IMG/VR virus record: IMGVR_UViG_3300046059_000043
Location: 1 to 57,451 of that record
From: a virus
DNA length: 57,451 nucleotides
Direction: 5' to 3' (one strand)
Shown here: piece after piece, positions 4,395 to 20,947 of the stretch
Position numbering within the stretch: the stretch's first letter is position 1
How the letters are laid out: each line of letters opens with the position of its first letter
Notes under the pieces: generated by a model
Database searches by the model: none
What the model saw: the letters and a program-made list of their open reading frames with translations, nothing else
Told to the model about the DNA's origin: nothing
Position numbers and translations under genes: made by a program

Positions 4395-4407
4395 CGCCGT
4401 CCGCCCC

Positions 4408-5099: not shown

Positions 5100-5139
5100 C
5101 GGTTCAGTGTTGGTTTGGTGAGAAAAAACAGGAAGCGTG

Positions 5140-5310: not shown

Positions 5311-5341
5311 CAGTATAGGGGATCGATTTATGGAATATCGT

Positions 5342-5353
5342 GTGATATATCAC
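5342..5353. promoter_or_regulatory. Perfect 12-bp palindrome GTGATATATCAC in the AT-rich core of the divergent control region
   Basis: Self-complementary 12-mer read directly. It sits between the leftward and rightward arms in the most AT-rich stretch of that region. Confidence 0.45.
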
Positions 5354-5695
5354 GGGCTTCGGGGGGTGTAGTTCCGGTGTGCGTGTGAAGAATCATGCGT
5401 CGGGCAACCCAACCCACAAAATTTTTTGCGCCCGAAAACCTCTTAGTGTTACGGTTCTCTGCAGTATCGGCACGCATTCCCGTGGTATATGCCACTTTGT
5501 CACCAACCGTAACGCATTCACACGGGAACCAGGGGTTGTGTAATTTTTACCCGACCCGAAACCGGGACGCCGCCCCAACACGCGTGATTTCAGGTTCCGC
5601 AATCCCCGCCGGAACCACATTGACATTCCCCACTTGATTCCCGACCAGCGGGCCGTTACCTTCTCCGTCCGTTCTTCTCACAGGGACGCAGGCGT

Positions 5696-6739: not shown

Positions 6740-6798
6740 CATACCCCACGTAGTAAGAATCCACGTTCAAGTCATCCACTGACAGCCCGCTCGGACCC

Positions 6799-7872
6799 AT
6801 GAAATCAGCGAAGAGGAAGCTCCAAGACGAGTATCTTGATGGTGTCCCCACCCCGCAGCCCGGGCAGGACATGCCGGATTATTCCCACGGCCTGAAGGTG
6901 CTTGCAGAGGCGATTGATGATGTCAGGCGGAGCCTGAAGGAGGAGATTAAGGCGCTTTTTGAGGAGGTGGAGGAGACGCCGAGCATGTCCCGGGTATCTG
7001 AGGAGCTGGTGAACTTGGAAGATCGAATCAGCTCGATTAAGGAGATCACTGAGGAGATGAGCGAGGAGAGTCTCGTGTCGGAGTGGTTGAGTGAGGTAGA
7101 GGAAGAGCTGGAGGCCCTGAAGCAGGGGGAATATGGCTATGGCGAGATGGTTGGATCCGCAGCCAAGATGGGGCAGCGGGTTGATCAAAACGCGCAGCGC
7201 CTCGATGAGGCGGAGGAGGCTCGTGAGCGACTTGAGGACAGTTTGGTCGACAAGGCCCGCTCCATAGAGTCCTGCGAACAGGGTATTGAGGCGCTCGGGC
7301 GGGTGATTGATGACTTCGGGGAGAGGCTCGGCGACCTTTTTGAGAGGCTGGAGGGATTGGAGGCCCGCGTTCAGGAGGAGGATTTCGGGCCAATCGGTTC
7401 GGAGTTGGGCCGCTTGTCGGAGGGGCAGGGGAAGCTGTCATCCCTGTTGGAAGAGCTTGAGTCCCGCATTGAGGACATGGAGGAGGGGATGGACATCCAA
7501 GATGAGGAGCGAGCGAGCATGACAGGGATGATTGAGCGTCTCCGCCGGAGGGTTACCCGCCTTGAGGAGGCTTGGTTGGCTGATCGGTCCGATGCGGAGG
7601 TGGTGGAGGGCGGAAGCAGCGAGGCGACTCAGGCGGAGGCGCCCGCTCGCCCGAAGTCTCCTTTCCAGGAATCTCCTCGCTCGGATTCTTCTTCTGAGCC
7701 GTCCTGGCACGACGGGCCGCCGGAGCCGGGCGTGTACATTCGGGCGCATGAGCGTGGGAAGCCGGAAGTGGCCCGCATTGTGGCCCCGGCGGCGCTCGAC
7801 ATTCCGGAGTCGGAGACGTTTTACGGCCCGATTCCGGAGAAGGAGGGGACGGGCCTCGAAACATACGTGTAG
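6799..7872 (+). CDS. Acidic coiled-coil protein, function unknown (357 aa)
   Basis: ORF track. Long Glu/Leu/Arg heptad-like stretches, for example LEDRISSIKEITEEMSEESL and LERLEGLEARVQEED. Confidence 0.65.
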   Translation: MKSAKRKLQDEYLDGVPTPQPGQDMPDYSHGLKVLAEAIDDVRRSLKEEIKALFEEVEETPSMSRVSEELVNLEDRISSIKEITEEMSEESLVSEWLSEVEEELEALKQGEYGYGEMVGSAAKMGQRVDQNAQRLDEAEEARERLEDSLVDKARSIESCEQGIEALGRVIDDFGERLGDLFERLEGLEARVQEEDFGPIGSELGRLSEGQGKLSSLLEELESRIEDMEEGMDIQDEERASMTGMIERLRRRVTRLEEAWLADRSDAEVVEGGSSEATQAEAPARPKSPFQESPRSDSSSEPSWHDGPPEPGVYIRAHERGKPEVARIVAPAALDIPESETFYGPIPEKEGTGLETYV

Positions 7873-7930
7873 TTCCCCACGTGAAAGCGTGTCCGTCCGC
7901 AGGATCTTTCACCAGTGATCGGTGGCAAGG

Positions 7931-8182
7931 ATGAGTAGCCCGATAGATGGCCTGCCTGATCGGTACATGGGCTACCTCCCGCCGGAGTCGGAGGTCCCCG
8001 AGGGCGCGCCCAAGGAGGAGGCCGACGCGTACCGTGCGGTGAGGGCGATCATTCGGTGGGCGCAGGAGAACACCTCTGAGTCAGATGAGGTGATCGCCCG
8101 GAAGGTGATGAATGCCGTGCGGATGGGCGAGCTTGCATCGAATATGGACTTCCCTGAATCCGTCGGCTTTTTCCCAAACTAA
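7931..8182 (+). CDS. hypothetical protein (83 aa)
   Basis: ORF track gives 7922..8182 from a GTG. The first ATG is at 7931. Confidence 0.55.
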   Translation: MSSPIDGLPDRYMGYLPPESEVPEGAPKEEADAYRAVRAIIRWAQENTSESDEVIARKVMNAVRMGELASNMDFPESVGFFPN

Positions 8183-8196
8183 CGGTGATCGGTTTT

Positions 8197-8697
8197 ATGA
8201 GCGAGTCAGGAGCAGAGCCAGAGCCGGATTGGATGGAGGTCAAGCCCGGGCGGCTCTCAGTGTCAGGCCGGTCGCTTGTTGACGAGGAGGAGGTCGTCGT
8301 GGCCGAGGTGAACGGGCTGGCCTATCCGGAGGGCGTCCTCACAGAGATCGCGTGGCGGTACAACAAGTATCCGGGCCTAAAGAGCACCCGGAGTGATCTC
8401 CGAGAGGCGATCTCTGATGCCTGCTTCGCGCTGAATCACGGCAATACTGATCGTGCGAAAGGGTACCTGCTATTCGCCCTCGGCGAACGAAAACGGCCAT
8501 CTGATGAGCAGCAGTTGCGGGAGGCGCTCACCACACGTCGCTCCCACGACCGCATCTCCGGCACGGGCATCCTGCGGAGGGCAGCCGAGCAGGTGGATTC
8601 TCAGGCCCTGGCCCGAGACCTGATGTCGATGGCGTCGGATGTCGACGCCGCCCTGAACGGCAGCTCCGCTAACGACAGCCCCGCCAGCGATGAGTGA
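8197..8697 (+). CDS. hypothetical protein (166 aa)
   Basis: ORF track gives 8185..8697. The first ATG is at 8197 (MSESGAEPE...). Confidence 0.6.
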   Translation: MSESGAEPEPDWMEVKPGRLSVSGRSLVDEEEVVVAEVNGLAYPEGVLTEIAWRYNKYPGLKSTRSDLREAISDACFALNHGNTDRAKGYLLFALGERKRPSDEQQLREALTTRRSHDRISGTGILRRAAEQVDSQALARDLMSMASDVDAALNGSSANDSPASDE

Positions 8698-8983
8698 CCC
8701 GCTCTACCAGGTTGTCCACTACCTGAATAGCAATCTCACGGATCTCGGCGTGAAGCTGAAGGTGGGCATGGAGACGACTGTGCGGACAACCGTCATTATC
8801 GGCCCCCTAGAGCATGAAACGGATCTGCATGTGCGCATCACTGAGGAAGGGTGGGAGCTGGCCGGTCCGGAGGCTCAGGTCCAGCGCATCGAAGAGGAGA
8901 TCCGAGACCGGCTCGCCGTCCGGCCCCGATTGAGGAGCCGATTTCTGGAGCCGGTCTCGGATCTCCTCATCGCAACAGCATGA
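8690..8983 (+). CDS. hypothetical protein (97 aa)
   Basis: ORF track. The start overlaps the previous stop by 8 nt. Confidence 0.6.
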   Translation: MSDPLYQVVHYLNSNLTDLGVKLKVGMETTVRTTVIIGPLEHETDLHVRITEEGWELAGPEAQVQRIEEEIRDRLAVRPRLRSRFLEPVSDLLIATA

Positions 8984-9225
8984 AATTCGGTAAAATCTAC
9001 CACATACCCATGTCAAAACTCTCCGACAAAGGCGACCTGACCGGCCTGGCCGAAGACCTTGAGGCAGTGTTCGAGGAGCACAGGTTTTCGGATGTAGCCC
9101 TCGGGGTCGCGTTCACCTTGCCCGAGAATCGGCGCAAGGCCCATTGGGTCACCAACGTGTCAAGGGAGCAGGTCATCCAGCTCTTCGCGGGGACTGCCCA
9201 GAAGATGCAGTCCGAGGTGAACTGA
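8980..9225 (+). CDS. hypothetical protein (81 aa)
   Basis: The ATG at 8980 overlaps the upstream TGA (ATGA). The ORF-track form 8851..9225 would overlap most of the previous gene. Confidence 0.55.
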   Translation: MKFGKIYHIPMSKLSDKGDLTGLAEDLEAVFEEHRFSDVALGVAFTLPENRRKAHWVTNVSREQVIQLFAGTAQKMQSEVN

Positions 9226-9336
9226 TCCTACCCAGGGCAACCCTTCATGAGGCTCCAAAGAGCGACAGCTACGAAGAAACAGATAGAGCACCCACTTGCA
9301 GAGCATCTACTTACGAATAGCACCCTTCACTACCCA

Positions 9337-9363
9337 CTCATAAGGCGCAACAGACGCTATGAG
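9337..9363. repeat. 27-bp sequence CTCATAAGGCGCAACAGACGCTATGAG, repeated in perfect inverted orientation at 56682..56708
   Basis: The reverse complement of 56682-56708 equals 9337-9363 exactly. Both copies include a start codon and its 22-nt leader. Confidence 0.9.
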
Positions 9364-9943
9364 CAGGCAAAAGAAGCTCCCGAAAGTTCTCTCCAATGAG
9401 GAGACGGACTCTCTCTTTCAGCAACCGAACCGGCGCTACTTCAGCCCGCACCGCGATTACCTGATGATGCGGGTCATGCTGATGGCCGGGCTGCGGGCCG
9501 AGGAGGTGACGACGCTTCGGCCCGAGCACGTAGACCTTCAGACCGGCAAGACGAATGTCGTGGAGGGCAAGGGCGCGAAGGACCGCAACGTGTGGCTCTC
9601 CGATGGGGTCTTGTCGGAGCTGCGGGAGTGGCGGGCGCGGCGGGCAAATGCGGATCTCGGGTCGCAGTCCGCCGCCCCCCTCTTCCCGACGCAGAACGGG
9701 ACGGCGGTCGCGACCTCTCACCTGCGGCGTTCGGTAAGCCGGTACGCCAGCGATGCTGAGATCCGCGGGGTCTCCCGCGTGAGTCCGCACACGCTCAGGC
9801 ACACCTTCGCCACGCGCCTCTACAAGCAAACCGGCGACATTCGGCTGGTCCAGAAGGCGCTCGGGCACTCCGACGTGTCGACGACGATGATCTACACCCA
9901 CATCGTTGACGACGACTTGTCCAGCGCGATGCGGAGCCTGTAG
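9359..9943 (+). CDS. int: Tyrosine recombinase/integrase, catalytic domain only (194 aa)
   Basis: Catalytic signature: MAGLRAEE (Arg I), EGKGAKDR (Lys), HTLRHTFAT (His-x-x-Arg), LGHSD (His), TMIYTH (Tyr). The protein starts at the beginning of the catalytic domain, with no N-terminal core-binding domain. Confidence 0.85.
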   Translation: MSRQKKLPKVLSNEETDSLFQQPNRRYFSPHRDYLMMRVMLMAGLRAEEVTTLRPEHVDLQTGKTNVVEGKGAKDRNVWLSDGVLSELREWRARRANADLGSQSAAPLFPTQNGTAVATSHLRRSVSRYASDAEIRGVSRVSPHTLRHTFATRLYKQTGDIRLVQKALGHSDVSTTMIYTHIVDDDLSSAMRSL

Positions 9944-9986
9944 GGGGACCCCCCTCGTAGACCTGTCGCTCAGAACCGCGCCCCTC

Positions 9987-10250
9987 ATGACTATTGCAGA
10001 CCACACTGTCCAGTATTGTAAGGAGCATGATCTCCCGGGCGTATCTGCGGGCGATCTCGGTGTCATCGGCGACATCGCCGAGCGCTCAGGTGTCGCGGAG
10101 CGGAATACCATGAATCCGCACCCCCTGAATCGGCGTGACAACGTGCTCGCAGGGCTAGAGCGAGATGAGCGGTTTGAGAAGCATTACTACCGTGGTCACG
10201 ATTCGAGAGGCAGGACCCGCACGCTCCGCAGATTCATGCTCAGAGAGTGA
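9987..10250 (+). CDS. hypothetical protein (87 aa)
   Basis: ORF track gives 9906..10250. The first ATG past the integrase stop is at 9987. Confidence 0.5.
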   Translation: MTIADHTVQYCKEHDLPGVSAGDLGVIGDIAERSGVAERNTMNPHPLNRRDNVLAGLERDERFEKHYYRGHDSRGRTRTLRRFMLRE

Positions 10251-11107
10251 GCGAGGCATCTTCTTTCGACTCAACAATCCCCTTCAACGCGATGGCAGAT
10301 TCCGACCAGAGTCCTTCTGGAAATGCAGCCCAGGGTTCTTCCGGCGCTGAGGAGAAGTATGACTGGCCTGTGCGAAGCCGATTCCAAAAGAAGTATCTCC
10401 CCTACGGGGTGCGGATCTGCGATGAGACCCTGAATGAGATCCGCGTGTTCAAAGACTGCAAGGTAGTGACTGCTGCTGAAAACGGGAGGAAGGCCGTAGT
10501 TATAGAAACCCGTGAGGGAAAGCTTCGAGCGAGGTACGGAGACTGGATCATGGAGGACTCAGAGGGCAGCCACTACCCCATCGCGCACGAAGAGCTTCGG
10601 AAGACATATGAGCCGGTAGATGACGACCGGCTGAGAGCGCCTAACCAGTCATCTACTTCCGAAACCAACCGACAGGTTGATATGCCGACTAAAGAGGACG
10701 CATCGCGCTTTAGCGGTGAGGTGGCCGAGAGGCTCTCCGATCACCATGAGGAAATCGACGTGATCGCCCCGTCCAATGAGTTTCAGGGGACGCGCCAGGG
10801 GTTCTGGACGGTCCGCCTATCGAGCTTCGAGATCCGCTCAGAGCTGGAGTTTGCGGTCTGGCCCTGCCGCAAAGAGGACCGGTATCACCTGGGCGTTCGC
10901 CTGTTTGGGCAAGGAATTCAGGTGTGCCCGAACGGCCTGTTTGGTCACTCGCGCCAACTCAATTCCCTTCACACGAGTCCCGGCACGGCCTATCACCGTC
11001 TCATGGGACTCTTGAACGCGCAGGCGATCGCTCTGGGCGCTGAGGCTGAGGCTCCGGATTCTTCTGATCAGGGCGCGGATGCCGTTTCTGAGGACTGGAT
11101 TACCTGA
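10247..11107 (+). CDS. hypothetical protein (about 286 aa)
   Basis: ORF track. The GTG at 10247 overlaps the upstream TGA. An alternative ATG lies at 10292. Confidence 0.6.
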   Translation: MSEASSFDSTIPFNAMADSDQSPSGNAAQGSSGAEEKYDWPVRSRFQKKYLPYGVRICDETLNEIRVFKDCKVVTAAENGRKAVVIETREGKLRARYGDWIMEDSEGSHYPIAHEELRKTYEPVDDDRLRAPNQSSTSETNRQVDMPTKEDASRFSGEVAERLSDHHEEIDVIAPSNEFQGTRQGFWTVRLSSFEIRSELEFAVWPCRKEDRYHLGVRLFGQGIQVCPNGLFGHSRQLNSLHTSPGTAYHRLMGLLNAQAIALGAEAEAPDSSDQGADAVSEDWIT

Positions 11108-11115
11108 GCAGGTTC

Positions 11116-11130
11116 GAAACCGACAGGTTC
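11116..11130 (+). promoter_or_regulatory. GAAACCGACAGGTTC element, 2 nt upstream of the ATG at 11133
   Basis: The same 16-mer, CGAAACCGACAGGTTC, recurs at 15522-15537. It is a near-variant of the GAACC-N4-GGTTC palindrome. Confidence 0.4.
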
Positions 11131-11132
11131 AA

Positions 11133-11423
11133 ATGCGACAGACGCGGCTTTTTGACGGGAAGGCAAACAGGGATCCCCGGATCTCGTACCTGAAAGAGGC
11201 GGCGCGCGTTGCCGCCGAAGGCTACTGGAACCACGCCCTCACCGCTTTTGACCGGCGCCCGGTTGAGGTCCAAGGCGAAAAGGTGAGTGACCTCTTGGGG
11301 GCTGAGTGCGAGCGGTGCGGGGCCTACGTGCACGTGCGTCCGGAGGCGAAAGGCGGGCAGCCCAGCCTGCCACCGATCGAAGGACCCGCCGTCTCCACAA
11401 AGTGTGATAAAGCCCCTGAGTGA
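11133..11423 (+). CDS. hypothetical protein (96 aa) with a CxxC pair
   Basis: ORF track gives 11079..11423. The first ATG outside the upstream gene is at 11133 (MRQTRLF...). Contains GAECERCGAYVH. Confidence 0.5.
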   Translation: MRQTRLFDGKANRDPRISYLKEAARVAAEGYWNHALTAFDRRPVEVQGEKVSDLLGAECERCGAYVHVRPEAKGGQPSLPPIEGPAVSTKCDKAPE

Positions 11424-11424
11424 A

Positions 11425-11748
11425 ATGAAACAGAAAGTTGCCATCGCTCGCGCGAAGCAGGTCCTCGCCCCCGAGATCAAAGGGCACTGCCCCACGGAGA
11501 TCCCCATTCACCTGAGTGCCTCGGAGGATCCGACCGAGGTGATCGGATGGCTCGTCGGACAGGCGTACGTGAATTACCTCACTGATGACGGCCTCTCCGA
11601 GGGAAAGGCCAAAGAAATCGTTGCTGATCTCGCCAGCAGCAGCACTGTCAGCCTGGATGTGATCGTGCCGAAGGAGGCGACAGCTTCCGAATCGACAGAT
11701 TCAGGACTGAAAGGTCCACAATCGACAGATTCGGAACCGACAGCGTAA
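11425..11748 (+). CDS. hypothetical protein (107 aa)
   Basis: ATG at 11425 (MKQKVAIARAK...) inside ORF-track entry 11287..11748. The 3' end carries AATCGACAGATTC direct repeats. Confidence 0.5.
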   Translation: MKQKVAIARAKQVLAPEIKGHCPTEIPIHLSASEDPTEVIGWLVGQAYVNYLTDDGLSEGKAKEIVADLASSSTVSLDVIVPKEATASESTDSGLKGPQSTDSEPTA

Positions 11749-11779
11749 GAACCAACAGGGTCATAAGCGAAAGCTCAAG

Positions 11780-12040
11780 ATGGATCCCTTTGAGACCCCT
11801 CAAGACGAGACCCCGCCCCGCATCATCGAGGGGCGCGATTACTTCGACGAGACCGACGGGGCCAAAGAGCGGGCCGCCTGGTGCCACTGTCCGTACTGCC
11901 TGCGCCCGTTTTCCATCTCGCGCTGGCAGTACAAGGGGATCGTGCACATGGATTGCCGCTGGACAGATTGCAATTACAGCTTTCAGGGCGACCTCCGGGA
12001 GTTCGACACCGAGGCCCGCGACAAGCCGCTTTACGAGTGA
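11780..12040 (+). CDS. Small Cys-rich (zinc-finger-like) protein (86 aa)
   Basis: Contains CHCPYC ... HMDCRWTDC. Confidence 0.55.
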   Translation: MDPFETPQDETPPRIIEGRDYFDETDGAKERAAWCHCPYCLRPFSISRWQYKGIVHMDCRWTDCNYSFQGDLREFDTEARDKPLYE

Positions 12041-12091
12041 GCTGAAACAGGCGTGAGCTTTCCCACGTAGTAATAACAGGAACTGCTTGTC

Positions 12092-12376
12092 ATGTCCCTT
12101 GAGAAGCTCAAAGAGAGGGTCCTTACCGTCACGCAGGCCGCGCAGGAAAAGGGCTGTGAGCGGAAAACGATCCGCCGAGCCGTGTATCGGGGCGACCTGA
12201 CCCGGTTTGAACTCGGCGTCCCGCAGCGCGTCCTCATTCTCCGCGATAAGCGCTACAAGGAGTGGGAGCCGGACCCAGTCCCATTTCAGTTTCGATCCTT
12301 GGACGAGATTCGGGCGGAGGAAAGTGATACGACAGAAAACGGCTCAACCGAAGACGACTCAACTGAAGACGATTGA
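12092..12376 (+). CDS. Helix-turn-helix DNA-binding protein, possibly excisionase-like or a regulator (94 aa)
   Basis: LTVTQAAQEKGCERKTIRRAVYRGDL is an HTH-like segment near the N-terminus, followed by an acidic tail. Confidence 0.55.
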   Translation: MSLEKLKERVLTVTQAAQEKGCERKTIRRAVYRGDLTRFELGVPQRVLILRDKRYKEWEPDPVPFQFRSLDEIRAEESDTTENGSTEDDSTEDD

Positions 12377-12424
12377 GCAACCCGCCGATTCCCGCCGCAC
12401 ATTCGCGCAGCAGACGGAGCAGAA

Positions 12425-13249
12425 ATGTTTTTTGCACAGGCTAACCATGAGAAACAGGCCGCCGAGGCGCTGAACAGGTCCCTCGCCGAGCACGAGCCGC
12501 GGTCCGTCTTTCTGCTTTTCAGCGGCGGACACGACTCGCTCGTATCCACCCACTTCTCGAACCTGTTTCTGCGGTCGAAGGGGCTGGATCCGACCGTCCT
12601 GCATATTGACACGACGATCAGCGTCCCCGAAAATGAGCAGTTCGTCCGGCAGACGGCCCGCGACCTGAAGTGGGCACTGCGGATCATCCGTAATGAGGAG
12701 CATGACGGCAAATCCTACGAGGAGTGGGTCCTCGATGAGGGCTTCCCGACCCCGTTGGACCACGTGTTCGTCTACGCCCACCTGAAGCGGGAGGCCATCC
12801 GCCAAGTCGTGCGCGAAGAGAAAGAGGAGCGCTCAGATCGGGTCCTATTCGTCACCGGCGTCTACGCGGGGGAGTCCGGTCGCCGGGCCGGGTTCCACGA
12901 ACCAGAGAAGCGGGTCGGCGCTCAGGTGTGGGTCAACCCCTGCTTCGACTGGTCCGAGTCTCAAATGGCTGAGTATCGCCGCCGCCATCACTTGCCGACA
13001 AATGAGCTCGCTGCCGAGTACGGAACCTCGCCGGAGTGCCTCTGCGGAGCGTTCGCGCACCCTGGTGACCTGGAGGCTGTTGAGCACATCTGCCCGGCCC
13101 TGGCCGCAAAAATTCGGAAGCTCGATGAGATGACGACAGGGCGGGGGTATCCCTGGAGCTGGGACCACGATGAGATTCCCCAGCGCTGGAAACAGGAAAA
13201 AGAAGGTCAGAAGTCCCTTTTCGAGCCTCTTTGCACAGACTGTGGATAA
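12425..13249 (+). CDS. PAPS-reductase-family PP-loop ATP pyrophosphatase, paralog 1 (274 aa)
   Basis: PP-loop VFLLFSGGHDSLVSTH, a later ECLCG element and a C-terminal CTDCG. Clearly paralogous to 13818..14720. Confidence 0.75.
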   Translation: MFFAQANHEKQAAEALNRSLAEHEPRSVFLLFSGGHDSLVSTHFSNLFLRSKGLDPTVLHIDTTISVPENEQFVRQTARDLKWALRIIRNEEHDGKSYEEWVLDEGFPTPLDHVFVYAHLKREAIRQVVREEKEERSDRVLFVTGVYAGESGRRAGFHEPEKRVGAQVWVNPCFDWSESQMAEYRRRHHLPTNELAAEYGTSPECLCGAFAHPGDLEAVEHICPALAAKIRKLDEMTTGRGYPWSWDHDEIPQRWKQEKEGQKSLFEPLCTDCG

Positions 13250-13254
13250 CTGCT

Positions 13255-13812
13255 ATGCCCACCCGCTGTATTCGGTGCAACAGACCGCTTTCCGATCCTC
13301 GCTCTATCGCCCGAGGCATGGGGCCGGTGTGCGCCCGAAAGTCCGGCTTCACCGGCGAGAAGACCTCCAGGGAGATGCGAGACTTCCACGACGCCCGCGT
13401 GTGGGAGGACGTTACCCTCCAGGACGCCCTCGTGCTAGAGCGGGAGCCCCGCTCTGAGAAGATGGACCTGGCGAAGACCAACGTGCCGCACTTGGTCGTG
13501 CACCACTCCCCGACCGGCTTTGAGTGGGGGTACTCCGGGTCCGGGCCCGCCGACCTGGCGCTCAACGTCGTGCACTTCTTTGTCGAGGAGATGGACCTGG
13601 CCGAAGAGACGCAGGAGAGAGTGGTTGAGTGCCGTGAAGGAGAGGTTTCCCAGCTCGCCTGGGACCTGCACATCCCGTTCAAGGAGGAGGTGATCGCCAA
13701 TATCAGTGAGGATGGGGGCCGCCTCACCCCGACGCGGATCCGGGACTGGATCATGGAAGCCGCTGAGAATCGGTTCCATGACTCCGGCCCACAAGACACC
13801 CAAGTACAGTAA
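13255..13812 (+). CDS. Zinc-ribbon protein (RCIRCNRPLSDPRSIARGMGPVCARK) with a C-terminal domain of unknown function (185 aa)
   Basis: ATG at 13255. From memory, the CxxC...GxGPxC motif resembles small actinophage proteins of the DUF6011 type, and VVHHSPTGFEWGYSGSGPADLA resembles DUF6166. HMM confirmation is needed. Confidence 0.5.
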   Translation: MPTRCIRCNRPLSDPRSIARGMGPVCARKSGFTGEKTSREMRDFHDARVWEDVTLQDALVLEREPRSEKMDLAKTNVPHLVVHHSPTGFEWGYSGSGPADLALNVVHFFVEEMDLAEETQERVVECREGEVSQLAWDLHIPFKEEVIANISEDGGRLTPTRIRDWIMEAAENRFHDSGPQDTQVQ

Positions 13813-13817
13813 ACCCG

Positions 13818-14720
13818 ATGAGCACGCTTCAAGAAGCGCTCCACAAAGGCAAAACGGCTCTCCGCGAGGCCATCGGTGAGCATGAGCCGAACCAGGTGTT
13901 CGCGGCCTTCTCCGGCGGGACCGACTCGCTGGTTGCGGCCCACGCCCTGCATAAGGCGCGGCTCGGCTGTATTGGAACGCCGGTGGCCGCGCTCCACATC
14001 AACACCGGCATCGGGATGCAGCGCACCCGAAAGTACGTGCGCAGCACCTGCGATCGGATGGGGTGGGACTTGGTTGAAGAGAAGGCCACCGACAACGGCC
14101 ACCGCTATGAGGACCTGGTGCGGGGGAAGCAAAAGGGTGTGCCGGGCGGCTTTCCAGGCCCGCCCCTGCACCCGCTCTACTACCGCTACCTCAAGGAGCG
14201 CCAGATTGAGCAGGTCCACCGCGATTATAAGGGGGGGCGGGGCGGCAAGATTATGCTCGTCACCGGCATCCGGGCCGACGAGAGCCGCGTGCGGGCCGGA
14301 TACGAGAACGGGTGGATCTCCCATCACAATGGCGTCGTCTGGGTCAACCTGATCTACGACGTGACCGCCAGCCAGAAGCAAACCTACATCGACACCTTCG
14401 GCCTGGAGACCAACCCCGTCTCCGACGTGTTCGGAATGAGCGGGGAATGCCTCTGTGGGTGCTTCGACGAGAACGGCGGTCGGCTGACCGAACTGAAAGC
14501 CTGCTGCAAGCGTTTTGATGAGATGGAGACCTACCGGCGCATCACGGGCCTTCAAGACGAGGTCTCCGATCGATACCCGTGGCGATGGGACGAGCGGAAG
14601 CCCGGCTGGGCCAAGCAGGCCGAAGAGGGGCAGCTTGCGTTTGAGGGCCTTCCCGGCGCAGAGAAAAATAACCGCCTCGCTCACATGTGCGTCGGGTGCG
14701 GGAAGTCAGGGACCGCGTAA
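13818..14720 (+). CDS. PAPS-reductase-family PP-loop ATP pyrophosphatase, paralog 2 (300 aa)
   Basis: PP-loop VFAAFSGGTDSLVAAH, GECLCGCF, YPWRWD, C-terminal CVGCG. It aligns by eye with paralog 1 along its whole length. Confidence 0.75.
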   Translation: MSTLQEALHKGKTALREAIGEHEPNQVFAAFSGGTDSLVAAHALHKARLGCIGTPVAALHINTGIGMQRTRKYVRSTCDRMGWDLVEEKATDNGHRYEDLVRGKQKGVPGGFPGPPLHPLYYRYLKERQIEQVHRDYKGGRGGKIMLVTGIRADESRVRAGYENGWISHHNGVVWVNLIYDVTASQKQTYIDTFGLETNPVSDVFGMSGECLCGCFDENGGRLTELKACCKRFDEMETYRRITGLQDEVSDRYPWRWDERKPGWAKQAEEGQLAFEGLPGAEKNNRLAHMCVGCGKSGTA

Positions 14721-14749
14721 CCGATTCATATTCAGAGCCAACAGCTCGT

Positions 14750-15496
14750 ATGGGCGGATCAAATACGGAAGTCATCGTCAAGTACGTCGACTCGGAGACG
14801 GGCGAGAAGGTACCGAGAGATAAGGTCTCCGAAAAGGTGCGCCGCCTGGCCCCGGACTACCGCAAGGATGCCGTGCCGGACCTTGGGCCAGAAGACGACT
14901 TCGACTGCGACGAGCTTGCGGAGAAGTATGGCATCTGTGGGGCAGAGACGAGCGATGGCACCCCCTGCATGTTTCGAGCCGGAAGGGACACAGACCACTT
15001 CGGCTTTGGGCGCTGTTTCCGCCACGATAGTGACAGCACACTGACGAAAGGGCGGTACTCGAAACTCCGCGGGAAGATCGCGGACCGATACCACCGCCAC
15101 AAGAAGGGCAAAAACCCCTTGGACATCACCGACGAGATCGCCGCGATGCGCGCGCTCTTTGAGACGTTTATCAACGATTACGACCAGATCCGCGAGGACC
15201 TGCGCGCGTGGAACGAAGCGGAGCGAGAGGAAAGCAGCGCTGGGATTAGCCGCCCTCGCCGCCTGCCCGCCCTCCGGGACGGCTTCGAGATGCTTCAGGG
15301 CCTCTCGAAGGTGGCCCAGCGCCAACAGCAGATCGACATGGAGGATGCAGTCTCACGCCGCGAACTCAGAAGAGTCCTCCAGGAGTTTGCCCGCGTGGTC
15401 GAGCAGGAGATCCCCAAAGACATTCCCGAGGACTTAGATGGAGACGAGCTGATCCGCCGCATCAAGGACGGCTGGAACAAGATCCACATTTACTGA
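14750..15496 (+). CDS. hypothetical protein with a zinc-ribbon-like motif (248 aa)
   Basis: ATG at 14750 (MGGSNTEV...). Contains CGAETSDGTPCMFRAGRDTDHFGFGRCFRH and a helical C-terminal half. Confidence 0.55.
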   Translation: MGGSNTEVIVKYVDSETGEKVPRDKVSEKVRRLAPDYRKDAVPDLGPEDDFDCDELAEKYGICGAETSDGTPCMFRAGRDTDHFGFGRCFRHDSDSTLTKGRYSKLRGKIADRYHRHKKGKNPLDITDEIAAMRALFETFINDYDQIREDLRAWNEAEREESSAGISRPRRLPALRDGFEMLQGLSKVAQRQQQIDMEDAVSRRELRRVLQEFARVVEQEIPKDIPEDLDGDELIRRIKDGWNKIHIY

Positions 15497-15508
15497 CAGC
15501 AGGTCCAT

Positions 15509-15537
15509 GAAGCGACAGCTTCGAAACCGACAGGTTC
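15509..15537 (+). promoter_or_regulatory. Two adjacent GACA-loop hairpins or palindromes: GAAGCGACAGCTTC followed by GAAACCGACAGGTTC
   Basis: Read directly. They fill the 47-nt spacer before the GTG start at 15544. Confidence 0.4.
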
Positions 15538-15543
15538 TGACCC

Positions 15544-16080
15544 GTGCCTGAGCAGTGGCAGTACCACATCACGACCGCCGACGAGGAGCGCGCCCTGAAG
15601 GAGGCGCGGCGCCGGTGCGATCACAAGACGCGCCGCTCGGTGCCCTCGAACAAGGTCGACACCGAAGCGAGCGAGCTGGAGGTGCACGTTCGAGGGGTGT
15701 ACGGGGAGATCGCGTTTGCCAACCTGTTCGATGTCGGCCTCGACACGAAGGCGCGCATTAACGGGGACGGCGGGATCGACTTCCAGTTTACCTCCGGCCT
15801 CACCATCGACGTGAAGACCCGCTCGCAGCCGGGCCGCGACCTGGCCCTCTTCTCCCCGACCCTGCCGGGGCGCTCGGCGCACGTGTTCGTCCTCTGCTGG
15901 CGCATCACGCGCCGCACGTACCAGCTCGCCGGATGGACGACCCCCGTCGGCTTCCTCTTTGACGGGCGCGTGGAGCGCTTCCCACAGATGGGCGAGCGCC
16001 TCCTCGCTCAGCCGCAGGACCTGATGCCCCTCTCCGCCCTGAAACAACTCCGAACCGAGTGGCATTCCTCACTTGACTAA
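15544..16080 (+). CDS. Putative PD-(D/E)XK-fold nuclease (178 aa)
   Basis: GEIAFANLF ... DGGIDFQFTSGLTIDVKT fits a D...(D/E)xK arrangement. GTG start. The assignment is tentative. Confidence 0.35.
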   Translation: MPEQWQYHITTADEERALKEARRRCDHKTRRSVPSNKVDTEASELEVHVRGVYGEIAFANLFDVGLDTKARINGDGGIDFQFTSGLTIDVKTRSQPGRDLALFSPTLPGRSAHVFVLCWRITRRTYQLAGWTTPVGFLFDGRVERFPQMGERLLAQPQDLMPLSALKQLRTEWHSSLD

Positions 16081-16095
16081 CCCCTGACTTTTGAC

Positions 16096-16332
16096 ATGTC
16101 TGATCAACCCGACATTGACGTTTCCCCAGGCACGAAGGTGGAGAAGGGCGGGCACCGCTGGGTCTACTGTCGAAAGAATTTCCTCTCCAGTGACCTTCCG
16201 CTCCAGCACATGGTCGTATCGACCGTAGATGGGAGCGTGCAGATCATCTATCCTCAAATGCACGGGTCGGTCTCGAAGGCCCTCCGCGAGAATGGGTTCT
16301 CCCTTCCAAAAGCGACATCACCGCCTAGTTAA
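16096..16332 (+). CDS. hypothetical protein (78 aa)
   Basis: ORF track, ATG start. Confidence 0.5.
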   Translation: MSDQPDIDVSPGTKVEKGGHRWVYCRKNFLSSDLPLQHMVVSTVDGSVQIIYPQMHGSVSKALRENGFSLPKATSPPS

Positions 16333-16369
16333 AAGTTCAGAGGAACCCCTCCACAAGAACCCCTCCAGG

Positions 16370-16546
16370 ATGGCCCGCAGAAATCTCGAAGACGTGCCCT
16401 GGGACATCGTGTGCCGCCTTTACCGATCCGGCTACACCGGACCCCGGCTGGCAAAGCTGGTTGGGTGCCCGCCCAAAACGATCTACCGAAAGCTGCGGGA
16501 GCGGGGCATCAAGATCCGGAAGCAAGGCAAAAAACCAAACCCGTAA
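16370..16546 (+). CDS. Small HTH DNA-binding protein (58 aa)
   Basis: ATG at 16370. GPRLAKLVGCPPKTIYRKLRERGI is HTH-like, with a basic tail. Confidence 0.5.
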   Translation: MARRNLEDVPWDIVCRLYRSGYTGPRLAKLVGCPPKTIYRKLRERGIKIRKQGKKPNP

Positions 16547-16566
16547 CTGAGAGAGACTCCTGACGG

Positions 16567-16995
16567 ATGGACCTTGAAGAGTTCAACACGAAGTTCGGCG
16601 CGAGCGAGGAGGAGGTTCATAAGCAACTGGTCGAATACCTCGACCACGCGGTAGAGGAGGCCGCGCTCCTCTTCCACCCGGCCAACGGCGGCCTCATGCC
16701 AATGGGTACCGCCGGGAAGCTCAAGGGGATGGGATTAAGACAGGGCGTGCCCGACCTGCTGCTCGCGCTCCCGAAGGCGGACAAGCATGGCCTCTTCGTC
16801 GAGCTGAAGACGAAGGAGGGCCGCCTCCGGGGGAAGCAGGTGTGGTGGCTCTACCACCTCCGGCGTCAAGGCTTTGGGGCGATCTGCTGCCGCGGCTTCG
16901 AGGACGCCCGGACCCGCATTACCGCCTACATGGGCGGCAACTACAGCGAGCACCCCCTCCCTACCGAGCGCATCAAAAAGCCCGATCACGTCTGA
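16567..16995 (+). CDS. VRR-NUC domain nuclease
   Basis: GVPDLLLALPKADKHGLFVELKTKEGRLRGKQVWW matches the VRR-NUC PD...ExK core. Confidence 0.85.
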   Translation: MDLEEFNTKFGASEEEVHKQLVEYLDHAVEEAALLFHPANGGLMPMGTAGKLKGMGLRQGVPDLLLALPKADKHGLFVELKTKEGRLRGKQVWWLYHLRRQGFGAICCRGFEDARTRITAYMGGNYSEHPLPTERIKKPDHV

Positions 16996-17420
16996 TGGAC
17001 AAGCAGAGCAACGGACACCCGGAGCCGCCGACCGACGAGTATCCGCCCGACCCGCCGGAGGTGTGCCGCTACTGCCGCAGCCCTGTGAGCCTCGTCAGCG
17101 CAGAGGAGGTCTATCCGGGCATGGGGCTGGAGGCAAAACTCTACTTCTGCGAGGGATGCGGCGCTCGGGTCGGCGTGCACGAGGGGACCGACGACCCCGT
17201 TGGCTACCTGGCCGACGCGGAGCTCAGGCGGTGGCGGCGCGTCCTGCACGAGGCGCTGAGGGAGCTCCGAAAGCCGCGCTTCTACCAAAAATCGGTGCAC
17301 GGACTCATTCGAGAGGCCCTCGGCGTGCCTAGGGAGCGCGCCCGCGTGGCGATGCTCTCGATCGGGGAGGTCAAGAACATGATCGTGTGGCTGATGCGAC
17401 AGGGACCCGAAATCTCATGA
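16995..17420 (+). CDS. Zinc-finger protein (141 aa)
   Basis: The ATG overlaps the upstream TGA. Contains CRYCRSP ... CEGCGARVGVH followed by RRWRRVLHEALREL. From memory this resembles phage zinc-finger domain proteins such as DUF3268. Confidence 0.5.
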   Translation: MDKQSNGHPEPPTDEYPPDPPEVCRYCRSPVSLVSAEEVYPGMGLEAKLYFCEGCGARVGVHEGTDDPVGYLADAELRRWRRVLHEALRELRKPRFYQKSVHGLIREALGVPRERARVAMLSIGEVKNMIVWLMRQGPEIS

Positions 17421-17692
17421 GCGCCAACCCTATCTCTGATGGCGCAGTGGATATATTTCCTGTCTTTACCTCCGCTGTCAACCGGAATCAGGACAAAGGA
17501 CCCGGGAGGGCTGTGCACCTTGGAACGGAGGAGAGGTGGACGCTCTGCGGCATGGACAAGGTGCACCCGCACCTGCTCTGGAATTCTAGCTACCCGATCC
17601 ACGATCTTGAGGGGTTCCTCTCCGCGGACCCCGATGATGTGCTCTGCAGGACGTGCAGGTCGATTGCGCGCTCCCTCATAAATGGAAACTGA
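17417..17692 (+). CDS. hypothetical protein (91 aa)
   Basis: ATGA overlap with the upstream gene. ORF track gives 17387..17692. Confidence 0.5.
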   Translation: MSANPISDGAVDIFPVFTSAVNRNQDKGPGRAVHLGTEERWTLCGMDKVHPHLLWNSSYPIHDLEGFLSADPDDVLCRTCRSIARSLINGN

Positions 17693-17713
17693 ATCACCCC
17701 ACCCCACTGAGAC

Positions 17714-17914
17714 ATGCGAGACCGGCACATCCACGAACCCTGGCAGGGCGAATCAGGCCGCTGCAATCACTGCGGCACGGTCATCTCGACGGTGAAGCAA
17801 TACTGCGACCCATGCGCCCCGGACCGAAGTGTCTGCGCGCAGTGCGGGACGCCGATGAGCAAGAACCGGCGGCCACCAGTGTGTGAAGGATGCCTCAGCG
17901 AAGAGCAGCGTTGA
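17714..17914 (+). CDS. Cys-rich zinc-ribbon protein (66 aa)
   Basis: Contains CNHCG...CDPC...CAQCG...CEGC. Confidence 0.55.
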   Translation: MRDRHIHEPWQGESGRCNHCGTVISTVKQYCDPCAPDRSVCAQCGTPMSKNRRPPVCEGCLSEEQR

Positions 17915-17941
17915 TTTTCCTCAGCAAACACCCACTGAGCG

Positions 17942-18958
17942 ATGAGCGCAGTAGAAGAGTTTCCTGAGACCGTCCCCCTGAAGCCTAAGAGCGAGTTTGG
18001 CCCCGAGTGCCCCGTCGGCTTCTACGAAGGCGTGGGGCGCATGGCGTACCTCCGTCACCCCGCCCTCTCGCGGAGCGCGGTGGCGGCAGGCGCGAGGTAC
18101 TCCATCGCCCACGCCTGGCACGAGTGGAAGTCCGACCCAGAGGAGGAGATGACCGCGGCCCAGAAGTTTGGGAACGCCTTCCACCTGCTCACGCTGGAGC
18201 CAGAGCTTTTCCGCGCCCGCTACGATCGGGCGGCAGACCGGTGCCAGGGCACCCTCGCCTCCGGCGAGCAATGCTCCTACAGCCCTAAGGAGCGCTACGA
18301 CGGGGACTGGTACTGCGGCACCCACGCGCCCTCGGAGAAGGCGCCCGACGCCATCGAGACGCTCACGGCAGGCCAGTTTGAGGCATGCCACGAGATGACC
18401 AAATCCGCCGAGACGCACCCCGAGTCGAGCGCCCTGCTGAATCGGCAGCCCGGCCTTGAGGAGGTGACGATGATCTGGGTAAACCCGGAGACCGGCCTGC
18501 GGTGCAAGGCCCGCATCGACCGCCTGATTGATAACGGGTTCGGAGACGAGGTCAAACCCGCCCTCGTAGACCTGAAGACGACCGACTCCGCCCACGCGGA
18601 GGACTTCCGACGTAAGATCGGGCGGTACGGCTACTGGGCACAGGGGGCCTTCTACACGATGGGCTTCAACACGCTTGCGGCCCAGGTCTACGGCGTGCCC
18701 CCCATCCAGGAGCCGTTCCTCTTCTCGGTCGTAGAGAAGAGCGCGCCGCATGCCTGCCAGGTCTACGCCCTCAGCAGTCGGGTCCGCGAGCAAGGCACCG
18801 AGCGCGTCTTGGAGGTGATGAGCAAGCTGGCTGAGCATGAGACCGATAAGGCTCCTGCCCCAGAGCGCAGCTACAGCCCGAAGGTCGAGATGATTGGCCT
18901 CAGCCGATGGCAGAAGGAGCGCCTGCTTGGAAAAGAGGCGACGGAAGGGCCGCTCTGA
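17942..18958 (+). CDS. PD-(D/E)XK exonuclease (RecE/exonuclease VIII-like fold)
   Basis: GNAFHLLTLEP, KARIDRLID, ALVDLKTT and YWAQGAFY occur in the order typical of PDDEXK recombination exonucleases. Confidence 0.7.
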   Translation: MSAVEEFPETVPLKPKSEFGPECPVGFYEGVGRMAYLRHPALSRSAVAAGARYSIAHAWHEWKSDPEEEMTAAQKFGNAFHLLTLEPELFRARYDRAADRCQGTLASGEQCSYSPKERYDGDWYCGTHAPSEKAPDAIETLTAGQFEACHEMTKSAETHPESSALLNRQPGLEEVTMIWVNPETGLRCKARIDRLIDNGFGDEVKPALVDLKTTDSAHAEDFRRKIGRYGYWAQGAFYTMGFNTLAAQVYGVPPIQEPFLFSVVEKSAPHACQVYALSSRVREQGTERVLEVMSKLAEHETDKAPAPERSYSPKVEMIGLSRWQKERLLGKEATEGPL

Positions 18959-19039
18959 TCTGGACCCCAGGGCTTTTTATTTATCAGTCCCACCTGTAGG
19001 TTTATCTTCTGCTCTCCTCCCCAAAAAGTAACAGACCCC

Positions 19040-19510
19040 ATGCTCAATCAGCCCGCAAACAAACACTACACCGAAGTCAGCTACGCGGAATCCTCCCAGA
19101 AGACGACGATCCAGTCCGAGTCGGAGACCTCCGGCCCCGAGCGGGACGAGCATAAGGTGAAGACGCCCGCCCTCCCCCATCCGGACCTGCACGAGGTGCT
19201 TCAGGCGCTTGCGCCCTGGTTCTGCGATGTGCTGGAGTTCGGAGAGGGGTGGCTGGGCGACTGGACCGTCATCGGCGTCAAGCTCAAATATTCCGGCGGC
19301 GTGCCGGAGCTGGCCGTGACCGCGAAGCGAGAGATCCACACTGGCGACACCGTCTCCCATACGACCCCCTACCTCCCACCGAGCGGAAAGGCCCCCGCGG
19401 TGCTGGAGGCCCTCTTCGAGGAGGCGGAGAAGCACCTCTCCGGCAAGCGCGCTCAGGGGGACCTCTTCATGAAGTCCGATGGGGAGGATTCCCTCAAGGA
19501 TGTCGCTTGA
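19040..19510 (+). CDS. hypothetical protein (156 aa)
   Basis: ORF track. The ATG is preceded by AACAGACCCC. Confidence 0.55.
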   Translation: MLNQPANKHYTEVSYAESSQKTTIQSESETSGPERDEHKVKTPALPHPDLHEVLQALAPWFCDVLEFGEGWLGDWTVIGVKLKYSGGVPELAVTAKREIHTGDTVSHTTPYLPPSGKAPAVLEALFEEAEKHLSGKRAQGDLFMKSDGEDSLKDVA

Positions 19511-19567
19511 CCTGTAGCCCCCCCTATTCTTCTGAATAAGGCCCCACCTTCAGGCTGACACTTTTCT

Positions 19568-20776
19568 ATGAGAGACGTATTCGGCCAGCAGGTCGTCAAA
19601 AACGTATCCTCCCAAATTAACATCGCGTCCTCCAACCCGTACAACGCGGAGCGGTGGCGGCTCTCGGTAGATGGAACCACGGCGTTTCCACAATACGACG
19701 CGGTCCCGCAGTACAACCATGATGGAAAGCGCCATCGGCTGGAGCCGGGTGCCGGGGAGACCGTTCGGCTGCGGACAGCAGAACGCCCGAAATACGTGGT
19801 CGAGTTCGAGTCTGCCGCCACGATGTCGTGGGCGGCCAATAAGGACGCCTCCGGCCTCACGGGAGACGACCGAATCCGCATCGGACGCTTCGACGGCTCC
19901 GACGGATGGGCGATGGAATTCAACGCGGGGCACAGTGAGGAGGAATGTGACCTCCTGGTCATGCGTGGGGGGAGCGTGGTCCGGCGTAAAATCGACAGGT
20001 ATATCCCGGCAACGCTTTCGGACTTTATTCGCATTCTTCAGAAGGGAGCGTGGTACGACGCCACCCGACATGAATGGGACATCTCCCTCGTGCGGCGCGA
20101 ACGGCAGGTCAATGCGGAGGTCGGCACGGTCGGCATGGCCGGAGAGGGGCCAACAACACCGAATCTGCCGATCATGTACGAGGTCCGGGCTGACTCTTTA
20201 ACGTCGGATCTGGTGCTAAAAGCCGGGTCGGTATCGCTTGCCCAATACGGGAGGCCCTCAAATATCGTCCGGGTGAAAGAGCACGCGTTTCAGAGCACCC
20301 TCTCAACCGCAGGCGATTTTGAGCCGCTATACGCGATCCGGAAGGCCCCCTCCTACCGGGACGTAGAAGCACAGATCCTGCGGACGGAGATTTTAAAATA
20401 CGGAACTGATGAGCTTTTTGAGGTCGCCGTCCAGGCATTTCGGAGCTCAAAAGTGAGCTTCGACGGCACCGGTTCATGGGGGGTGCCCCCGGAGTGGTCC
20501 AGCAGGAACAACATCTTAGAGACTCGGAGCGACGTAGATCAAATTGCAGATCAAGACGGAAATCTTGCCGTTACGCCCTCAAATCCGGGCGGCTACCAGC
20601 TTGGGTATCACACTTCACTCGGGGATCTGGGAAGTGATAAGGGCCAGCCGTCCGAGTCGCAGACGGAAAAGGCGTTTCTCCACGAAGATGATGTGGCGAT
20701 CGTCCTCGGGAGGGTCGTGTCCAGTGGCTCCCCGTCCGACGCGACGATCTACACGAAGTGGTCGCAAGGGTGGTAG
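19568..20776 (+). CDS. hypothetical protein (402 aa), beta-rich, possibly virion-associated
   Basis: ORF track. I recognise no catalytic motif. It sits just upstream of terL and is followed by a strong hairpin. Confidence 0.55.
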   Translation: MRDVFGQQVVKNVSSQINIASSNPYNAERWRLSVDGTTAFPQYDAVPQYNHDGKRHRLEPGAGETVRLRTAERPKYVVEFESAATMSWAANKDASGLTGDDRIRIGRFDGSDGWAMEFNAGHSEEECDLLVMRGGSVVRRKIDRYIPATLSDFIRILQKGAWYDATRHEWDISLVRRERQVNAEVGTVGMAGEGPTTPNLPIMYEVRADSLTSDLVLKAGSVSLAQYGRPSNIVRVKEHAFQSTLSTAGDFEPLYAIRKAPSYRDVEAQILRTEILKYGTDELFEVAVQAFRSSKVSFDGTGSWGVPPEWSSRNNILETRSDVDQIADQDGNLAVTPSNPGGYQLGYHTSLGDLGSDKGQPSESQTEKAFLHEDDVAIVLGRVVSSGSPSDATIYTKWSQGW

Positions 20777-20808
20777 TTCGCAGTCGTTTATAACTGATCT
20801 CCCAGAAT

Positions 20809-20855
20809 AAAAAAACGCCAGGCCAGAGGCGGAGCAAGCCGCCTCGGACCTGGCG
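20809..20855. other. A7 run followed by a long GC-rich hairpin (CGCCAGG..GAGGCGG-AGCAAG-CCGCCTC..CCTGGCG)
   Basis: Two nested 7-bp stems read directly. The A-run comes before the hairpin on the plus strand, so it is not a canonical plus-strand intrinsic terminator. Confidence 0.4.
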
Positions 20856-20860
20856 CAGGT

Positions 20861-20884
20861 CACCCACTGAGGGCGCAACAGACG
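20861..20884 (+). promoter_or_regulatory. CACCCACT-GAG-GGCGCAACAGACG box upstream of terL
   Basis: Closely resembles CTACCCACT-CATAA-GGCGCAACAGACG upstream of int (9330-9356) and its inverted copy near 56686. Confidence 0.4.
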
Positions 20885-20947
20885 TACGAGGTCCTATCCC
20901 CCCTGCCCGAGCGGTGTTCCGAACCCACTTACCCGGAAGATTCCCCT

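Follow-up and report, generated by a model that had tools for sequence, protein, structure and literature searches.

Introduction

DndC, SspD and BrxP, the enzymes of DNA phosphorothioation, are PP-loop proteins of the PAPS (3'-phosphoadenosine 5'-phosphosulfate) reductase superfamily and carry cysteine or Fe-S sites (PMC10853773). Phage genes of the PAPS-reductase-like kind have been treated as uncharacterised or as speculatively DNA-modifying (PMC11437467, PMC13551039, bioRxiv 10.64898/2026.02.18.706556), and PAPS reductases are found in Aca-regulated, putative anti-defence operons (PMC13551039). "PAPS reductase / cysH" is among the genes that are listed most frequently as auxiliary genes of sulfur metabolism in viruses. 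The present study deals with two genes of this type, A and B, and with the gene M that lies between them, in a stretch of viral DNA of 57,451 nt (IMG/VR record IMGVR_UViG_3300046059_000043; hereafter the window), which represents a tailed-phage genome or prophage. A (12425..13249, + strand, 274 aa), M (13255..13812, + strand, 185 aa) and B (13818..14720, + strand, 300 aa) are co-oriented, and the gaps between A and M and between M and B are 5 and 5 nt. Our data lead us to think, with moderate confidence, that A and B are two independently acting, solitary PP-loop enzymes with a four-cysteine (Cys4) site which likely modify DNA, and that M is unrelated to them.

The described systems resemble A and B to different extents. 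DndC, SspD and BrxP have the superfamily and the possession of a cysteine site in common with the A/B family; the arrangement differs, as the A/B family has four invariant cysteines in a CxC...CxxC pattern whereas DndC has three cluster ligands and a Cys dyad (PMC10853773). BrxP of type 4 BREX is a protein of ~780 aa in which the PAPS domain is joined to DUF4007 and whose gene has brxC/Z/L neighbours, in contrast to the 274 and 300 aa of A and B. No DndA/D/E, SspB/C or BrxC/Z/L partners were found near A and B. CysH of M. tuberculosis (7lhr) and of E. coli and Vibrio (1sur, 6vpu) has in common with A and B the fold, the nucleotide-binding motifs, an arginine loop and a loop similar to DTG, but the A/B family is longer at the C-terminus by ~80 aa, with CxxC at the end. 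Of the cluster ligands of APS (adenosine 5'-phosphosulfate) reductase, the CC pair is absent from A and B at the corresponding RKV position, where K126 is present without a Cys. The [4Fe-4S] tRNA thiolases TtuA and NcsA give comparable sequence and fold scores, yet only an N-terminal stretch of 70 residues aligns, and the A/B family presumably lacks the zinc fingers of TtuA. NinC of phage lambda (L099, 1082..1954; annotated as a PAPS reductase) is, like A and B, a solitary PP-loop protein of an early/recombination region, and its position next to NinB/Orf and NinG/Rap parallels the presence of a VRR-NUC gene and an exonuclease gene close to A and B. It is a distant relative (hhalign probability 88%, E 2.8e-6, 144 N-terminal columns), and the Cys-rich C-terminal half of the A/B family has no counterpart in that alignment. 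NinC, located between NinB/Orf and NinD, shows that a model phage, too, has a member of the superfamily.

The nearest counterparts are viral proteins of phrog_424, for example those of Rhodococcus phage ReqiPine5, Mycobacterium phages Girr and Ruby, Rhizobium phage RHph_I3_18 and Halorubrum tailed virus 29 (tblastn identity 25-38%). These relatives are single-domain proteins of ~270-300 aa encoded in early or replication regions, as A and B are. The phage of the window differs in having two members side by side which belong to different clades, an arrangement that among 149 family loci was seen in its own clade only. By their profile matches A and B are members of this large viral "PAPS reductase-like" family, which is known but uncharacterised.

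Homology and conserved features of A and B

It was found that A and B are homologous along their whole length, as the first-pass annotation had proposed. BLASTP aligns residues 11-274 of A with residues 10-295 of B at 33% identity (E 1e-36), and all the blocks that had been listed as common to the two are present: EHEP, FSGGxDSLV, LHIxT, VTG..ES..RAG, VWVN, ECLCG, YPWxWD and a terminal CxxCG. The PP-loop reads SGGHDS in A and SGGTDS in B, ECLCG occurs in both, and the C-terminal motif is CTDCG in A and CVGCG in B. The assignment to the PAPS reductase superfamily also held, since both proteins exceed the PF01507 cut-off of 22.5 bits (A 49.3 bits, 7e-13; B 36.9 bits, 5e-9) and both match phrog_424 (A 4e-20; B 1e-24). 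A and B are the only copies of the family in the window. A profile search over 1.84 billion representatives returned 620 family clusters at E<=1e-30, a number that rises to 1352 at E<=1e-10; single-domain proteins of 260-320 aa make up the majority. At the nucleotide level the A-M-B region had no matches among 50,697 phage records.

An alignment of 47 diverse family sequences contains 21 invariant residues, and all 21 are kept in A and in B. They include S32, G34 and S37 of the SGGxDS PP-loop, H60 and T63, F112, P113, H118, Y122 and K126, S156 and R159, W175, and four cysteines, namely C211 and C213 in SGECLCG and C291 and C294 in the C-terminal CxxC. Since every family-invariant residue is retained, both proteins look active. 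The canonical SGGxDS loop, the HxxTG motif, which is similar to LDTG, and the R-DES-R arginine loop are the basis for the prediction that A and B are true ATP pyrophosphatases. The family profile aligns with CysH across the nucleotide-binding loop and the arginine loop. In a sub-profile comparison C211, alone of the two CxC cysteines, falls on the Cys of 'SIGC' in the APS reductase of M. tuberculosis (7lhr, E 0.003), a residue which is a ligand of the [4Fe-4S] cluster. The Cys4 site (CxC...CxxC) is predicted to hold metal, most likely a [4Fe-4S] cluster, where APS reductase has its own cluster.

The importance of the first cysteine pair is indicated by a different kind of evidence. Nine of the 150 top representative clusters (P0368, P0372 of the B clade, P0389, P0392, P0401, P0416, P0421, P0466 and P0475) are interrupted by an intein with Intein_splicing and LAGLIDADG domains, at SGECL|C...HN|CGAF. 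The insertion site is identical in all of them and lies inside the invariant CxC, with C213 as the +1 residue. Inteins tend to reside in motifs that are essential to the active sites of nucleic-acid-metabolism proteins, and the position of the intein argues for a functionally important CxC motif.

Relationship of A and B and gain of A as a cassette

The first-pass annotation had considered A and B to be a duplicated, presumably heteromeric pair with an intercalated zinc-ribbon partner. Phylogeny does not bear out the duplication. Orthologs of A form one clade (P0121-P0136, 55-89% identity) and those of B another (P0001-P0027). In a neighbour-joining analysis (47 sequences, 268 columns, 200 bootstraps) the A clade and the B clade were each recovered in 200/200 replicates, and A and B appeared as sisters in 0/200. 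When the relatives of A outside its own clade were ranked, B took position 22 of 39.

Comparison with close relatives of the window, three IMG/VR contigs and one Logan contig (L001-L004), revealed how the present arrangement could have come about. L001 contains A, M and B at 88-89% aa identity to the window, and the L002 sequence opens inside A, with M and B behind it. L003, whose B is 85% identical, has the order HTH-M-B (HTH, helix-turn-helix gene) without A. L004, whose B is 74% identical, has an ortholog of M, two unrelated genes and then B, again without A, and tblastn found no A in either L003 or L004. B is present in all four relatives. In a blastn comparison of the window with L003, homology ends at ~12270, in the 3' part of the HTH gene, and returns at 13255, which is the ATG of M. 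Because the homology breaks inside the HTH gene and resumes exactly at the start of M, A can be described as a clean one-gene cassette (12377..13254, + strand), which the window and L001 have, of which L002 shows a part and which L003 and L004 lack. The best-supported reading of these comparisons is that B is a resident gene of the phage lineage and that a sub-lineage would have acquired A, as a cassette from another clade, between the HTH gene and M. The two-gene arrangement would then reflect the gain of a cassette and not a new multi-subunit system.

Elsewhere, genes of both types occur alone. Orthologs of the A clade (57-60% identity) are single genes in unrelated phage contexts (L009-L013), one of which (L009) has the A-type gene beside a dCMP deaminase and a nucleoside deoxyribosyltransferase, and family homologs with 40-43% identity to B are likewise single genes. 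Family loci were collected from viral and genome collections, 86 initially and 149 later, with neighbourhoods of +-5-6 kb. Among the 149 loci a second family copy was present in this range in the window and L001 only, and an M gene in the window's own clade only. A search for a conserved partner gene found no neighbour family in more than ~12/86 or 10/149 loci, and what recurred was lineage-specific synteny. Small open reading frames (ORFs) upstream of other family members do not resemble M; L009 and L013 have an unrelated upstream domain in common. Since no partner is conserved throughout the family, its enzymes would act alone or with host factors. A scan of genome contigs with protein B alone gave no close relatives, and an alignment-based scan gave 61 distant loci. 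In two of the genome loci, L125 (6001..6683, a metagenome-assembled genome (MAG) of Gemmataceae) and L158 (6001..6821, Streptomyces diastatochromogenes), the match to the family consists of two adjacent high-scoring segment pairs in different frames; these split genes are probably frameshifted pseudogenes or assembly errors and not duplicates.

From their phylogeny and distribution, A and B are neither a tandem duplicate nor an obligate unit. This bears directly on the idea that A, M and B make up one heteromeric DNA-modification machine, in which a duplicated PP-loop pair would work with a zinc-ribbon adaptor. The tight, co-oriented packing of the three genes and the recurrence of the A-M-B order in L001, and probably in L002, speak for such a machine. 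However, L003 and L004 keep B and M without A, two unrelated genes separate M from B in L004, A-type and B-type genes are solitary elsewhere, ~145 other family loci have no M gene, and A and B are not sister clades. Together with the independent occurrence of M described below, these comparative data have largely refuted the heteromer model, and we regard it as very improbable.

The gene between A and B

M starts at the ATG at 13255, as judged by comparison with L003. Its product combines a DUF6011 domain (a Cys3 module; Pfam 1e-13) with a DUF6166 domain (2e-16), and the N-terminus opens with RCIRCNRPLSDPRSIARGMGPVCARK, which corresponds to Pfam DUF6011. This opening had been called a zinc ribbon. 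Only three cysteines of the module (C6, C9 and C27) are invariant in the M family, and for this reason it may be a zinc ribbon, a plausible label. The combination of DUF6011 and DUF6166 is present in >1200 homolog clusters, and the core of the family, TNVPHxVxHHSPxGFEWGYGGSGPADLALN, is near-invariant. A search of the literature on DUF6011 found nothing. The AlphaFold2 (AF2) model of M is confident (predicted local distance difference test, pLDDT, 83.8), and Foldseek found no fold match to it in the PDB (best E 1.9). The product of the M family looks like an uncharacterised enzyme or ligand-binding domain.

Three further contexts of the M family, all of them early regions of phages (L094, L095 and the L096-L098 group), have no PAPS-like gene within 6 kb of the M-family gene. 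Adjacency in the window's clade alone ties M to A and B. As far as its genomic distribution tells, M is a widespread, independent phage early gene and an unrelated neighbour of A and B; the view of M as an intercalated partner was not supported.

Comparison with enzymes of sulfur metabolism

The names given to the family suggest a role in auxiliary sulfur metabolism, that is, PAPS/APS reduction as by CysH or sulfate activation as by CysD, perhaps feeding a phage sulfotransferase. The supply of APS or PAPS to a sulfotransferase of the late operon had been one of two hypotheses of the first-pass annotation. Pfam and PHROG family names point to PAPS reductase, and PAPS/APS reductases and CysD are among the best sequence and fold matches in the PDB. 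The models that define these enzymes give another picture. The PAPS reductase model PRK02090/NF002537 scores 37.8 bits with A and 21.1 with B against a cut-off of 154, and TIGR02057 scores 22.7 and 19.3 against 254. For the APS reductase model TIGR02055 the values are 20.3 and 13.5 against 235, and for CysD (NF003587) 30 and 22.5 against 195. A and B are therefore 5- to 10-fold under the cut-offs of the CysH, APS-reductase and CysD models, and the profile searches speak against membership in these subfamilies.

The active-site motifs point in the same direction. PAPS reductases carry a degenerate PP-loop. The loop of A and B is of the canonical SGGxDS ATP pyrophosphatase type, whereas the aligned CysH of Vibrio shows 'SFGIQA'. 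The catalytic ECGLH tail is missing, there being no ECG[LI]H in A or B, and the alignment with CysH stops before the Cys region. No CysN, CysC or sulfite reductase was detected by Pfam and/or PHROGs among the ~48 window ORFs scanned, and the ORFs in 38..22654 contain no Walker A or GTPase motif, hence no CysN partner. It should be noted here that CysH uses up PAPS and does not supply it.

The sulfotransferase itself could not be upheld. The candidate is a weak match of Sulfotransfer_3 to ORF 29031..29690, which covers 33 N-terminal residues and reaches 17.7 bits against a cut-off of 27; this ORF has no PHROG match, and its best match among solved structures, at E 0.29, is not significant. The major capsid gene lies directly 5' of it, and a family-2 glycosyltransferase gene (29879..30988, 3.6e-7) follows. 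Together the two genes hint that glycans or sulfate groups may be attached to the virion or to surface structures of the host. A role of A and B in sulfate metabolism is unlikely from their motifs and scores, and as an overall explanation of the locus we give it hardly any weight. The ATP-type PP-loop, the four invariant cysteines, the intein at CxC and the fusions to DndB, Sp-DndD and ArdC-N that are described next make the label "sulfur AMG" (auxiliary metabolic gene) doubtful, and for the A/B family it is probably wrong.

Links of the family to DNA

Fusion proteins connect the wider family with DNA. The full-length family domain is fused to DndB in P0406 (5e-103) and P0492 (5e-85; L161, 8001..10049), to the small Dnd-associated Sp-DndD in P0381 (1e-7; L162, 4373..5668) and to the ssDNA-binding ArdC N-domain in P0430 (2e-15; L164, 8001..9536). 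SGGxDS, SGECLC and CxxC are retained in all of these fusion proteins. Their genes lie near those for an MT-A70 methylase and a dCTP deaminase in L161, a C5 methylase in L162 and podophage head-tail connectors in L164. Neighbours of family genes in general include a C5 methylase (12/86 loci), DpdA (6 loci), MT-A70 methylase, DnaB, SSB, Prim-Pol and dCMP or dCTP deaminases. The window itself encodes a C5 DNA methyltransferase (5696..6739, PF00145 at 3e-37), which agrees with what had been noted earlier. It is because of the fusions, the intein at CxC and the Cys4 pattern that DNA modification is favoured over sulfur metabolism. The other hypothesis of the first-pass annotation, a phage DNA modification, thus gains indirect support from the fusions and neighbourhoods of the family. 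A report of a phage PAPS reductase that evades Dnd, cited as reference 56 of PMC13551039, was untraceable; the paper on JSS1_004 concerns a kinase/shutoff protein and not a PP-loop enzyme.

Membership of A and B in the DndC, SspD or BrxP groups had also been brought up, and canonical DNA phosphorothioation by an enzyme of this type would be the most direct form of DNA modification to consider. The common superfamily, the fusions to DndB and Sp-DndD in some family members and a weak, domain-level match of A to BrxP (3.5e-5) are in line with it. The profile searches speak against such membership: neither NCBIfam release 20 nor PADLOC-DB v2.0.0 contains a DndC or SspD model that matches at E<=0.1, and the neighbouring genes have no Dnd or Ssp matches in Pfam or PHROGs, DndE and SspB included. 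For BrxP, the PADLOC model reaches 20.2 bits with A and 10.7 with B in the PAPS domain only, and no brx genes lie nearby. Moreover, the known phosphorothioation systems all need a P-loop NTPase partner, DndD, SspC or BrxC, and strains which have a PAPS-reductase gene but no such NTPase have no phosphorothioate (PMC12914056). With no Walker A motif in the ORFs of 38..22654, a DndD, SspC or BrxC-type NTPase is missing there. Canonical phosphorothioation by A and B is accordingly unlikely, and we would assign it a small probability.

The fold comparison raises the question of a tRNA substrate. In the AF2 model of B (pLDDT 89.2) the PAPS/APS reductases, TtuA, TilS and CysD are about equally close among PDB folds (query-normalised template modelling score ~0.41-0.49, top 30). 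A and B could thus be enzymes similar to TtuA, NcsA or TilS that adenylate and thiolate, or otherwise modify, host or phage tRNA and so tune translation. TtuA is the second-best PDB sequence match (7e-7); TtuA, TilS and NcsA are among the leading fold matches of the B model; and the design of TtuA and NcsA is that of a Cys-bound cluster beside a PP-loop. In addition, homologs in archaeal viruses are annotated as fusions of PUA, an RNA-binding domain, with PAPS reductase. On the other hand the alignment with TtuA and TilS extends over residues 17-88 only, in the N-terminal part with the PP-loop, no tRNA gene is present in the window, the fusions seen in the family involve the DNA-associated DndB, Sp-DndD and ArdC-N and not RNA-binding domains, and the neighbours of family genes are genes of DNA replication and modification. 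We consider tRNA modification improbable, though less so than canonical phosphorothioation. Further structural searches were of little help. A comparison of PDB sequences with the Cys-rich last 110 aa of B yielded noise and no solved relative; Foldseek of B against BFVD returned only proteins that are likewise named 'PAPS reductase'; and the literature gave nothing on PptA, which had matched weakly in the PDB (21fy_C).

Proposed DNA modification by solitary enzymes and its possible mechanism

The reading of A and B as solitary Cys4 enzymes that likely modify DNA has to be weighed against several of the above results. The fusions to DNA-associated domains occur in other family members and not in A or B. 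The missing DndC and SspD matches, the missing Walker A motif and the dependence of known phosphorothioation systems on an NTPase stand against a sulfur modification of the described kind, and the similarity of the fold to the tRNA enzymes TtuA and TilS equals that to the sulfonucleotide reductases. The C-terminus of the B model has low pLDDT, and the Cys4 site could bind Zn instead of an Fe-S cluster. Finally, the function of phage PAPS-reductase-like genes has been called open in the literature (PMC11437467; bioRxiv 10.64898/2026.02.18.706556). All of these points weigh against our interpretation, in which our confidence is moderate.

If A and B do act on DNA, a possible course of events can be outlined. 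An enzyme of the A/B type would bind DNA within the phage replication compartment and adenylate a base or a backbone oxygen, with release of PPi. The AMP leaving group would then be replaced by sulfur or another nucleophile, delivered via the cysteine/cluster site, and phage DNA could thereby acquire a mark that protects it against restriction. Copies from two clades that are not sisters might provide two specificities. In this more specific form, in which solitary Cys4 enzymes need no NTPase of the DndD, SspC or BrxC type to install a DNA mark, for instance a thiolated base or sulfur in the backbone, and two copies give two marks or specificities, the proposal is speculative and we ourselves consider it rather unlikely. 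If true, it would mean that the widespread 'cysH AMG' annotation conceals a class of DNA modification, new and self-contained, by which phages counter restriction. The analysis in any case yields a testable hypothesis, a solitary enzyme acting on DNA, and the A/B pair offers two diverged, presumably active enzymes of one phage for side-by-side biochemistry.

Genomic setting of the locus

The phage nature of the window is evident from a large terminase gene (20948..22654, phrog_2) and from genes for a portal, a MuF-like protein, a major capsid protein and a holin. The rightward early region has the order HTH gene, A, M, B, a Cys/His protein (~14750..15496), a protein of 178 aa, a nuclease of the VRR-NUC type (16567..16995) and a PD-(D/E)XK protein similar to exonuclease VIII (17942..18958). 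A gene does precede A, M and B at the place where an HTH gene had been announced (12092..12376, + strand, 94 aa), but the HTH-like character of its small product is indicated by sub-threshold Pfam matches only (AbiEi_4 9e-4, HTH_17 1.5e-3). It has orthologs in L001 (64% aa identity) and L003 (58%), and in L003 it stands directly 5' of M. A scan for sigma-70 promoters and terminators in 11400..16200 gave nothing exceeding shuffled controls.

The gene downstream of B (14750..15496, + strand) codes for a Cys/His protein of ~248 aa with the motif CGAETSDGTPC...GRCFRHD; its start at 14750 was derived from the L004 ortholog. The product is 74-86% identical at the aa level across L001-L004 and is always encoded downstream of B, and it has no family in Pfam or PHROG. 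Residues 100-133 of the exonuclease (17942..18958) contain a DUF5763-like motif (E 0.0028, sub-threshold) which is similar to that of the Cys/His protein. By this similarity, the two proteins may have a small zinc-binding module in common.

Among the genes upstream, a tyrosine integrase/recombinase (9359..9943), co-oriented in the early operon, is unusually short, as its 194 aa comprise the catalytic domain only. It is kept at 80-91% in L001 and L003, and in L004 the corresponding position is taken by a Phage_integrase gene for 192 aa. No tRNA genes were detected when the window was scanned for them. The closest genome-encoded relatives of B are found in MAGs of Gemmataceae (Planctomycetota) at 40-44% identity (L102, L103, L106 and L125). 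The G+C content of the window, 62%, is compatible with a Gemmataceae-type host, for which it is weak evidence only. In 44001..48000, near the end of the tail/fibre genes and near the lysis genes, the G+C content is 0.54-0.57 as compared to ~0.62 elsewhere, and this part of the window may be a mosaic or recently acquired segment.

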